From: an uncultured Bacilli bacterium
GTDB lineage: Bacteria > Bacillota_I > Bacilli_A > RF39 > UBA660
Direction of reading: 5' to 3'
Assembly: GCA_947601485.1 (NCBI GenBank)
Contig: CANQGF010000003.1
Location: 1 to 54,041 of the forward strand
DNA length: 54,041 nt
Shown: positions 45,981 through 46,361 of the stretch, piece after piece
Layout of the letters: each line of letters starts with the position of its first letter
Position numbering within the stretch: position 1 is the first letter of the stretch
Position numbers and translations under genes: made by a program
The notes under the pieces: model-generated
The model's input: the letters and a program-made list of their open reading frames with translations, nothing else
Told to the model about the DNA's origin: nothing
Database searches by the model: none

Positions 45981-46009
45981 TTGAAATAAGTGCCAAAATA
46001 TAATATAAT
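45981..46009 (+). promoter_or_regulatory. Sigma-A promoter for a putative antisense/small RNA
   Basis: TTGAAA-N17-TATAAT with no convincing plus-strand CDS downstream. Confidence 0.7.
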
Positions 46010-46014
46010 GAATA

Positions 46015-46133
46015 TGTCAAAGAAATTGACATAAAATAAAAATGGAAGTACTTATTTAGAGTGTTGAGTACTTGCTCAAAATTTTTTCAAATTTTTTAAA
46101 GCACTACAATCATTCCGATTGAGTGCCTTTTTT
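46015..46133 (+). ncRNA. Putative ~120-nt small RNA (candidate type I antitoxin)
   Basis: Bounded by a promoter and a strong terminator (GCACT-A-CAATC-ATTCC-GATTG-AGTGC, then C and TTTTTT; 46101-46133); internal hairpins; convergent with the peptide ORF. Confidence 0.6.
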
Positions 46134-46155
46134 ATTAATTTATTTTTTTTGAGAA

Positions 46156-46221
46156 CTACCAGATGATTAATAAAATAATTATTATTAGTAGGATAAAGAT
46201 TAAACAATCTTTTTTACTCAT
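46156..46221 (-). CDS. 21-aa hydrophobic peptide absent from the ORF track (candidate type I toxin)
   Basis: MSKKDCLIFILLIIIILLIIW; strong AAGGGAG SD held in a TTGCTCC-GAAG-GGAGTGG hairpin; extended -10 TGTTAAGAT upstream. Confidence 0.7.
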   Translation of the reverse strand: MSKKDCLIFILLIIIILLIIW

Positions 46222-46361
46222 AATAGCCACTCCCTTCGGAGCAAGCACTCAAACTTAAGTCTTCCAATATTTATCTTAACACAAGTTTATTTTAAAGTGT
46301 GAGGACATAATAAATATTAGTGCCTTTTTCTTTGAAAATATCATTAACTAAATATAAATAA

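Follow-up and report, generated by a model that had tools for sequence, protein, structure and literature searches.

Toxin-antitoxin (TA) systems of type I have been reported for few phyla and are considered under-detected, since searches for them use known families (excerpts of PMC12390103). In this study we examined a candidate for such a system, a convergent pair of genes for a short hydrophobic peptide (minus strand) and a small RNA (sRNA; plus strand), in a 54,041-nucleotide stretch of DNA from an uncultured Bacilli bacterium of the RF39 lineage UBA660 (contig CANQGF010000003.1 of assembly GCA_947601485.1, positions 1 to 54,041 of the forward strand; hereafter the window). We conclude, with a probability of roughly 0.7, that the locus is a type I TA-like module belonging to a new, lineage-specific family. 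This reading is carried by computed features, namely the anatomy of the locus, its conservation in multiple copies, purifying selection on the open reading frame (ORF), strand-specific covariation in the sRNA and complementarity of the mRNA's 5′ end to its 3′ end. From these we infer transcription of both strands, toxicity of the peptide and the mode of action of the antitoxin.

Among known systems, par (Fst/RNA II) of Enterococcus faecalis pAD1 and SprA1/SprA1as of Staphylococcus aureus resemble the window locus and its relatives in many respects, as far as excerpts of two sources describe them (PMC7472228, PMC8594479). [quoted passage not shown] In par/Fst, however, the two genes share a bidirectional terminator and RNA II measures ~40 nt (excerpts of Weaver 2020, PMC7472228), whereas the window family is predicted to use two terminators, with an overlap of ~100 nt, and an sRNA of ~110-120 nt. 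The window family also has no direct repeats of the DRa/DRb type that match the sRNA to the translation-initiation region, and its peptide, unlike Fst, has neither a PXXXG motif nor a charged C-terminal tail. Indeed, the window peptide MSKKDCLIFILLIIIILLIIW contains no P or G and lacks such a tail. No Pfam, NCBIfam or Rfam model of par/Fst matches the family.

A second resemblance is to the Gram-positive type I systems txpA/RatA, bsrG/SR4, bsrE/SR5 and yonT of Bacillus subtilis, in which, according to excerpts of PMC8594479, the genes are convergent and the antisense RNA base-pairs over ~100 nt with the 3′ portion of the mRNA. In those families the antisense RNA is described in the same excerpts as also covering the ORF (PMC8594479), while the predicted window sRNA ends short of it. 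The peptides and RNAs of these systems are unrelated in sequence to those of the window family. Their duplexes undergo RNase III-dependent decay, and to our knowledge no pairing of the mRNA 5′ and 3′ ends into a panhandle has been described for these families.

Such end-to-end pairing is known from hok/Sok (plasmid R1, E. coli) and aapA/IsoA (Helicobacter pylori), where full-length mRNAs are closed by a long-distance 5′-3′ interaction in addition to local SD-masking hairpins (excerpts of Masachis et al. 2019, PMC6733600). The window family shares this closure as a prediction (83 of 90 units). The antisense RNAs of hok and aapA cover the 5′ region or the ORF, and they bind only once the mRNA has been trimmed at its 3′ end. 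In contrast, in the window family the panhandle's own 3′ strand is the complement of the predicted antisense RNA, which lies wholly within the 3′ UTR (46014-46133, with the ORF ending at 46156). Moreover, the family's panhandle mostly leaves out the SD, the host lineage is of the Gram-positive type, and the sequences are unrelated. The family was not found in the curated libraries Pfam, NCBIfam, PHROGs and Rfam or in literature searches, which cannot prove absence from print.

Anatomy of the locus

A first-pass annotation, made from the letters of the window alone, had proposed a new type I TA locus at this site. The minus-strand elements that it named are all present: the hydrophobic 21-amino acid (aa) ORF, an SD occluded by a local hairpin with a GAAG loop, and an extended −10 element placing the transcription start near 46265. 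The same holds for the plus-strand promoter TTGAAA-N17-TATAAT. Its further claim of ~120 nt of structured non-coding sequence with a strong terminator is borne out by the fold (z −3.9) and by a hairpin followed by U6. The terminator is not shared with the mRNA, two different hairpins being used according to our predictions (see below). The features of the locus are as follows.

46156-46221, minus strand: toxin-like ORF of 21 aa plus stop, MSKKDCLIFILLIIIILLIIW (start ATG 46221-46219, stop TAG 46158-46156)
46230-46234, minus strand: SD GGGAG (46234-46230), 8 nt 5′ of the ATG
46226-46245, minus strand: SD-sequestering stem-loop, anti-SD GCUCC (46242-46238) paired with SD GGGAG (46234-46230) across a GAAG loop
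46273-46281, minus strand: extended −10 of the predicted toxin mRNA promoter, TGtTAAGAT (46281-46273), with +1 near 46266-46265
46241-46266, minus strand: predicted mRNA 5′ end (M1), UGGAAGACUUAAGUUUGAGUGCUUGC, which can fold into a local hairpin or supply the 5′ strand of a helix of 28 bp made with the mRNA 3′ end
46030-46077, minus strand: predicted toxin-mRNA terminator, the complement of H2 plus U-tract UUUUUAUUUUAU, from U-tract statistics and folds
45981-46009, plus strand: predicted sRNA promoter, TTGAAA (45981-45986), 17-nt spacer, TATAAT (46004-46009), 11 of 12 matches
46014-46133, plus strand: predicted antitoxin sRNA of ~118-120 nt, from the fold (z −3.9) and a full-length hit of the sRNA covariance model R1
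46015-46031, plus strand: sRNA 5′ hairpin H1, from the fold
46032-46043, plus strand: A-rich linker of the sRNA, from the fold
46044-46077, plus strand: long hairpin H2 of the sRNA, from the fold and covariation
46101-46126, plus strand: terminator hairpin T of the sRNA, followed by U6 at 46128-46133, from the fold and covariation

The window SD is paired in both the minimum free energy (MFE) and the centroid fold of 179 nt (−37.3 kcal/mol, z −2.95). On the plus strand, a 126-nt stretch that ends in the 3′ hairpin and U6 folds at −28.7 kcal/mol (z −3.9), a stability reached by none of 200 shuffles, and R1 aligns to 46014-46133 over its full length with 58.8 bits (E 7.7e-7). The position of the sRNA promoter agrees with the promoters of aligned paralogous units. 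Because the whole unit is conserved elsewhere, the window copy stands beyond chance.

A large family in gut Bacilli

The search for further copies that the first-pass annotation had called for revealed that the locus does not stand alone. In the assembly that carries it (1.37 Mb, 91 contigs), BLAST recovered a second full-length copy and several partial ones, and an nhmmer profile extended this to six complete units, one on the window contig (C3), two each on C45 and C1, and one on C58 (E 1.8e-54 to 2.9e-76), together with one toxin-less sRNA gene and two distant relatives. All units have a common layout, in which a promoter is followed by a near-invariant 29-nt 5′ module (UGUCAAGGAAACUUGCAUAAAAUAAAAAAGG), hairpin H2, and hairpin T with its U-tract, and an SD-led hydrophobic ORF faces them on the opposite strand. 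The 5′ module hardly varies across four peptide subfamilies and many genera. R1 found eight sRNA genes in the same genome, corresponding to the six full units and two genes without a toxin.

Outside this genome, the C45 unit has matches in all 24 other genomes of the same genus, where it is often repeated and in tandem, and a scan of public genomes for the exact pattern of the 5′ module returned at least 119 stretches. The matches listed are all from uncultured gut metagenome-assembled genomes labeled Bacilli, Tenericutes/Mollicutes, Erysipelotrichaceae, Clostridia or Candidatus Ventrenecus, and the sources among them include rabbit, mouse, chicken, goat and human. R1 was also run on 150 genomes sampled evenly from the class, and it hit 5 of the 13 other genera that belong to the same family and none of 137 genomes from 25 other families. 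Among the genomes searched in this way, the unit is confined to one bacterial family, in which a single 1.2-Mb genome can carry up to a dozen R1 hits. Measured against its relatives, the window locus is a divergent and shortened member of a large lineage-specific family.

Peptide subfamilies and purifying selection

A convergent ORF preceded by an SD and encoding a hydrophobic core was recovered for 103 of 153 distinct units bearing the 5′ module, using a filter that asked for a length of 18-45 aa, an SD and at least 14 residues in the hydrophobic core; the remaining units are cut by locus ends, are toxin-less or fail the filters. The peptides fall into these subfamilies.

Subfamily A: MxKKD[FL]LI..., usually 26-29 aa, which includes the window peptide
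Subfamily B: MKTKTFIIKVLKLIAIILFLL..IKK, 30 aa
Subfamily C: MRKSEKYLCTIIILLIIVILIILIKIVPTV, 30 aa
Subfamily D: MTKREFSQFIIILLLFLVVIILLLK, 25 aa

In every subfamily the N-terminus is basic and a single membrane helix is predicted. Within subfamilies, the ratio of nonsynonymous to synonymous divergence (dN/dS) ranges from 0.14 to 0.59, and dN is below dS in 470 of 489 comparable pairs, although the pairs are not independent. Substitution patterns thus indicate that the family ORFs are under purifying selection, and the conservation of the ORF that the first-pass annotation had wanted checked is now documented in about 100 units. Its statement that the peptide matches no family it recognized also stands: among 70 members, no toxin model is found among the Pfam hits at E≤1 or the NCBIfam matches at E≤0.1, and none of the 70 has a PHROGs match at E≤0.01. 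A protein atlas search with one 30-aa family member gave no usable match.

The NCBIfam search did return weak similarities to small membrane subunits, namely SecE for 5 of the 70 members (best E 0.021) and MgtR and KdpF for one each. Since many small hydrophobic proteins are benign, these similarities bear on an alternative in which the peptide is a harmless small membrane protein, such as a regulatory or accessory subunit, with a cis-antisense regulator, so that the locus would mimic a TA system with nothing toxic or addictive about it. We consider this unlikely. The NCBIfam matches are far under the curated cut-offs, and many paralogs and tandem arrays in genomes of ~1 Mb are typical of type I TA systems and unusual for housekeeping genes. 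Presence/absence polymorphism at the window site, the adjacency of other copies to tRNA and recombinase genes, the double occlusion of translation and the existence of toxin-less sRNA genes likewise speak for a TA-like module rather than a benign protein.

Conserved structure of the predicted antisense RNA

An alignment of 81 sRNA sequences, representing the four subfamilies and the window, was analyzed with RNAalifold, which predicts 23 base pairs in three helices, 14 of them with compensatory double changes. Paired cells amount to 96.3% of this consensus structure compared to 85.9% in column shuffles, none of 500 of which reach the observed value, and sliding the partners by 1-3 columns lowers the fraction to 23-38%. 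For covariation, the score is 0.469 versus 0.249. Moreover, H2 and T together contain 203 G·U cells and only about 10 A·C cells. Because each G·U pair corresponds to a C·A mismatch on the opposite strand, the fold is under selection in the plus-strand transcript and not in the DNA or the complementary RNA.

Rfam searches of window positions 44500-47500 gave only chance-level matches (E≥3), and the only Rfam matches in 10 family loci were tRNAs. An attenuator-like alternative fold, in which the 3′ arm of H2 pairs with the 5′ arm of T, was dropped, as this pairing contains mismatches and a small hairpin intervenes in many units.

Two predicted terminators and a 3′ overlap

Read along the mRNA strand, the complement of H2 (H2′) has a U-tract behind it in all 81 units, and the complement of T (T′) has one in none of the 81. 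The constant presence of the tract 3′ of H2′ is explained by its template, the conserved A-rich linker of the sRNA. From this we predict that the toxin mRNA passes through T′ and ends at H2′, giving a window mRNA that would extend from 46266 to ~46030 (~235 nt; the family mean is ~238 nt). In this predicted criss-cross layout, the sRNA and mRNA genes would use two separate unidirectional terminators.

Given these predicted ends, ~90-105 nt of the mRNA 3′ UTR have a perfect complement in the sRNA, as follows from the overlap of convergent transcripts, and the ORF lies outside the overlap. In the window, 22 nt separate the end of the sRNA (46133) from the end of the stop codon (46156).

Predicted SD masking and pairing of the mRNA ends

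Masking of the SD was assessed by folding the sequences of 90 units individually. The family mean for the probability that the SD is paired is 0.78, compared to 0.59 when the upstream sequence is shuffled, and values greater than 0.8 occur in 41 of the 90 units and in 2 of the 90 controls. The arms of the hairpin vary among subfamilies while pairing is retained, with CCUCC/GGAGG, CUUUC/GAAAG and CUCCUUUAC/GUGGAAGGAG as examples.

The mRNA 5′ end also has a distant partner, since M1 is complementary to the 3′ end of its own mRNA. The sRNA and the mRNA 5′ end contain repeats that are inverted at the DNA level and hence share the same sense in the two RNAs. Boxes differ by subfamily (UUGAGUGCU, UUGGGUGAU, UUGAGUGUC, UUAGGUACU and AUCAGAUGU), and M1, H2 and T co-vary. 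Among transition differences between M1 and H2, 158 preserve a G·U pair in the M1:H2′ helix while 25 would yield A·C. Uninterrupted helices formed by cognate M1 average 12.3 bp with H2′ and 9.5 bp with T′, versus 9.1 and 8.0 bp for the arms of the sRNA, and M1 helices are longer with cognate than with non-cognate partners.

A panhandle, scored as at least 15 pairs between the first 35 nt and the last 60 nt, is present in the MFE structures of 83 of 90 predicted mRNAs (mean 24.7 pairs; range 20-33), compared to 1 of 90 when the 5′ 34 nt are shuffled. In most units the panhandle itself does not contain the SD. For the window mRNA, the MFE model includes a closing helix of 28 bp. When the same RNA is truncated after T′, the predicted structure instead contains the local M1 and SD hairpins.

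The window copy as an insertion

On the minus strand, the peptide ORF is preceded by a GDPD-family gene and followed by murG and murB.

44807-45892, minus strand (the strand of the ORF): murG (45892-44807), with the peptide ORF upstream of it

This arrangement, with the ORF upstream of murG and on the same strand, could mean that the peptide gene and its structured leader are a cis-regulatory leader or attenuator of the murG-murB operon. Synteny contradicts such a role. The 400-bp block between murG and the GDPD gene is matched at this site only in genome G047 (84% identity; 86% over 336 nt in a second comparison), whereas the flanking genes abut in 11 genomes of the same genus; they lie 1.1-2.7 kb apart in at least 12 others. 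Units are also found in unrelated contexts, a hairpin and U-tract are predicted to end the peptide mRNA before murG, and murG has a promoter-like sequence of its own. We therefore rejected the leader on synteny and regard it as highly improbable. The first-pass annotation was correct in placing the locus upstream of murG, but the connection with murG that this placement suggested is not upheld: comparison with relatives indicates that the window copy is an insertion, absent from this site in most of them, and unconnected with murG.

A metagenome contig that joins 45892 to 46443 with 132 other letters between them derives from a relative without the locus, which fits an insertion and adds little. 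Contigs from four metagenome runs gave fragmentary matches, whose loose ends at 46004 reflect paralogous copies. In the G047 ortholog, the RNA elements are nearly unchanged and the peptide is 26 aa in length; the window and G047 ORFs diverge past codon 8, with compensating indels.

The promoter-like sequence on the murG strand, TTGGCA-18-TACAAT (45996-45967, minus strand; 10 of 12 matches), is situated 3′ of the predicted terminator of the toxin mRNA, back-to-back with the promoter of the sRNA, and in the window genome murG may use it as its own promoter. Farther upstream, beyond the GDPD gene, a 390-aa ORF (46985-48157, minus strand) has no Pfam match at E≤1e-5.

Genomic context of other copies

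Some relatives of the window locus are located beside tRNA genes. In 18 of 60 public loci scanned (L054-L113), a tRNA gene (Phe, Leu, Thr, Arg, Met or Gln) precedes the sRNA module by 50-110 nt in the same orientation, and the same arrangement occurs at two tandem arrays, on G000:C1 and G018:C7. Two examples of such genes are as follows.

G000:C1:40057-40130: tRNA gene beside an sRNA module
L012:326-399: tRNA gene beside an sRNA module

The array on C1 (G000:C1:38432-44162) consists of two TA units and one orphan sRNA gene in tandem. On one side are an ORF resembling Y-family polymerases and a tRNA gene, and on the other are a helix-turn-helix/membrane ORF and an ORF with an N-terminus similar to those of large serine recombinases (..AYARVSTD..), all named by eye. 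The tRNA adjacency points to hot spots of insertion, or to integrative elements, at the 3′ ends of tRNA genes.

These contexts, together with a 29-nt module that is near-invariant across four cargo subfamilies and many genera, and with the array in the window's own genome that abuts the recombinase gene named by eye, can be read in another way. The unit might be a mobile cassette or repeat that acts at the level of DNA, with its hairpins and 5′ box serving as recombination or attachment sites of small tRNA-targeting integrative elements and with the ORF as interchangeable cargo, so that no RNA-regulated pair would exist. We judge this a poor explanation of the data. The asymmetries between G·U and A·C (203 vs ~10 in the sRNA, 158 vs 25 between M1 and H2) imply selection on strand-defined transcripts, promoters and U-tracts are placed exactly as needed for two convergent RNAs, and the ORF is under purifying selection. 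In addition, the window copy has no adjoining tRNA or recombinase gene. A type I TA-like module and a mobile unit are nonetheless compatible, as TA modules are common cargo of mobile elements; the selection on the boxes acts on RNA, yet the data fit TA units carried in this way.

At these loci, a terminator-like hairpin located immediately after the tRNA gene overlaps the −35 element of the sRNA promoter.

Proposed mechanism

The combined evidence supports the new type I TA locus proposed by the first-pass annotation, in that each architectural element is conserved in about 100 units, with an ORF that is under selection and an sRNA fold that covaries. Several observations weigh against this interpretation, some of which concern the window copy. 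Its toxin −10 element, TAAGAT, is the weakest of 90 and is found in this copy alone, whereas 73 of the 90 units carry TATAAT; the window sRNA promoter, unlike this −10, is near consensus. The window sRNA scores lowest of the eight copies in its genome (58.8 bits). The peptide is shortened to 21 aa and has a hydrophobic stretch of 16 residues; its small length is not decisive because peptides of 18-19 aa such as those of the Ibs type are toxic. The window copy may therefore be an attenuated or decaying member of the family. Promoter-like sites occur in the window DNA (26% GC) at chance density, with 14 found versus 11.1±3.2 in shuffles, and for this reason the window sRNA promoter by itself is weak evidence. 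The terminator hairpin of the sRNA was not called by a simple terminator scan because its stem carries a bulge.

Other points concern the family. Pairing of the SD exceeds the control only moderately (0.78 vs 0.59), and RNAalifold returned zero consensus pairs for a MAFFT alignment of 36 5′ UTRs, in which loops and arms are misaligned; owing to this failure, the evidence for SD masking comes from individual sequences. The longest helix between the sRNA and the 5′ UTR with its translation-initiation region (mean 10.2 bp) is not above chance (9.2 bp with shuffled UTRs). Finally, the units counted are related paralogs and orthologs rather than independent samples.

In our working model, a minus-strand mRNA of ~235 nt would be translated into a 21-aa membrane peptide with a single helix, presumably a membrane-active toxin, and a convergent plus-strand sRNA of ~120 nt would be its antitoxin. 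Peptide synthesis would be held down by the local hairpin that buries the SD. In the finished mRNA, the first ~28 nt would pair with the 3′-terminal hairpin region to form a panhandle like those of hok and aapA, and the mRNA in this state would probably be stable and poorly translated. The sRNA could pair with the same 3′ region, competing with M1 for the 3′ strand of the panhandle. RNase III would cut the resulting duplex of ~100 bp, as it does in txpA/RatA and bsrG/SR4, which would remove the protective 3′ end of the mRNA. A direct block of the ribosome-binding site by the sRNA, analogous to the second contact in Fst, is not supported, since complementarity to the 5′ UTR is at the level expected by chance (10.2 vs 9.2 bp).

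On a more speculative note, these features might together define a new type I design. The panhandle would lock the mRNA in an inert and stable form, and an sRNA that mimics the mRNA 5′ end would open the panhandle and mark the mRNA for cleavage, combining a lock in the style of hok/AapA with a 3′ overlap in the style of RatA/SR4. The design would have spread as four to five peptide subfamilies behind one invariant sRNA 5′ module, often in tRNA-adjacent arrays that may stabilize small integrative elements in the reduced genomes of gut Bacilli. We offer this composite picture tentatively and think that it is possible, but it is rather less likely to be correct in full than the assignment to type I TA-like modules.

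The window locus leads to a large unannotated family, with hundreds of loci, in one family of uncultured animal-gut Bacilli. Its members have been overlooked by annotation pipelines, and dense TA arrays beside tRNA genes may mark integration hot spots. The family also offers a compact, covariation-rich model for communication between mRNA ends and for antisense action from the 3′ UTR.

Orphan and variant units

Two D-type sRNA genes that are full-length hits of the covariance model (73.6 and 64.5 bits) have no convergent toxin ORF and resemble antitoxins. They are located at G000:C12:30076-30188 (minus strand) and G000:C1:40929-41042 (plus strand). In other genomes, for example at L012:1906-2164, the D-type sRNA is paired with the toxin MTKREFSQFIIILLLFLVVIILLLK.

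A possible fifth, distant subfamily is represented at G000:C31:1450-1860 and G000:C1:230-640 (both minus strand). It has an sRNA-like hairpin and terminator, a convergent ORF, and an mRNA 5′ end resembling the sRNA hairpin, and the invariant 5′ module is missing from it. Its hydrophobic ORF, M[DE]YLIIL..., encodes 22-23 aa, and its frame overlaps a strongly SD-led, non-hydrophobic ORF starting with MKG.... This overlap could be a leader arrangement like that of hok/mok or could result from a frameshift error.

Some subfamily A sRNAs from public loci (L071 and L094) carry an extra hairpin that duplicates the 5′ arm of the terminator, extending the sRNA to 127-131 nt, which hints at an internal duplication of the shared box.

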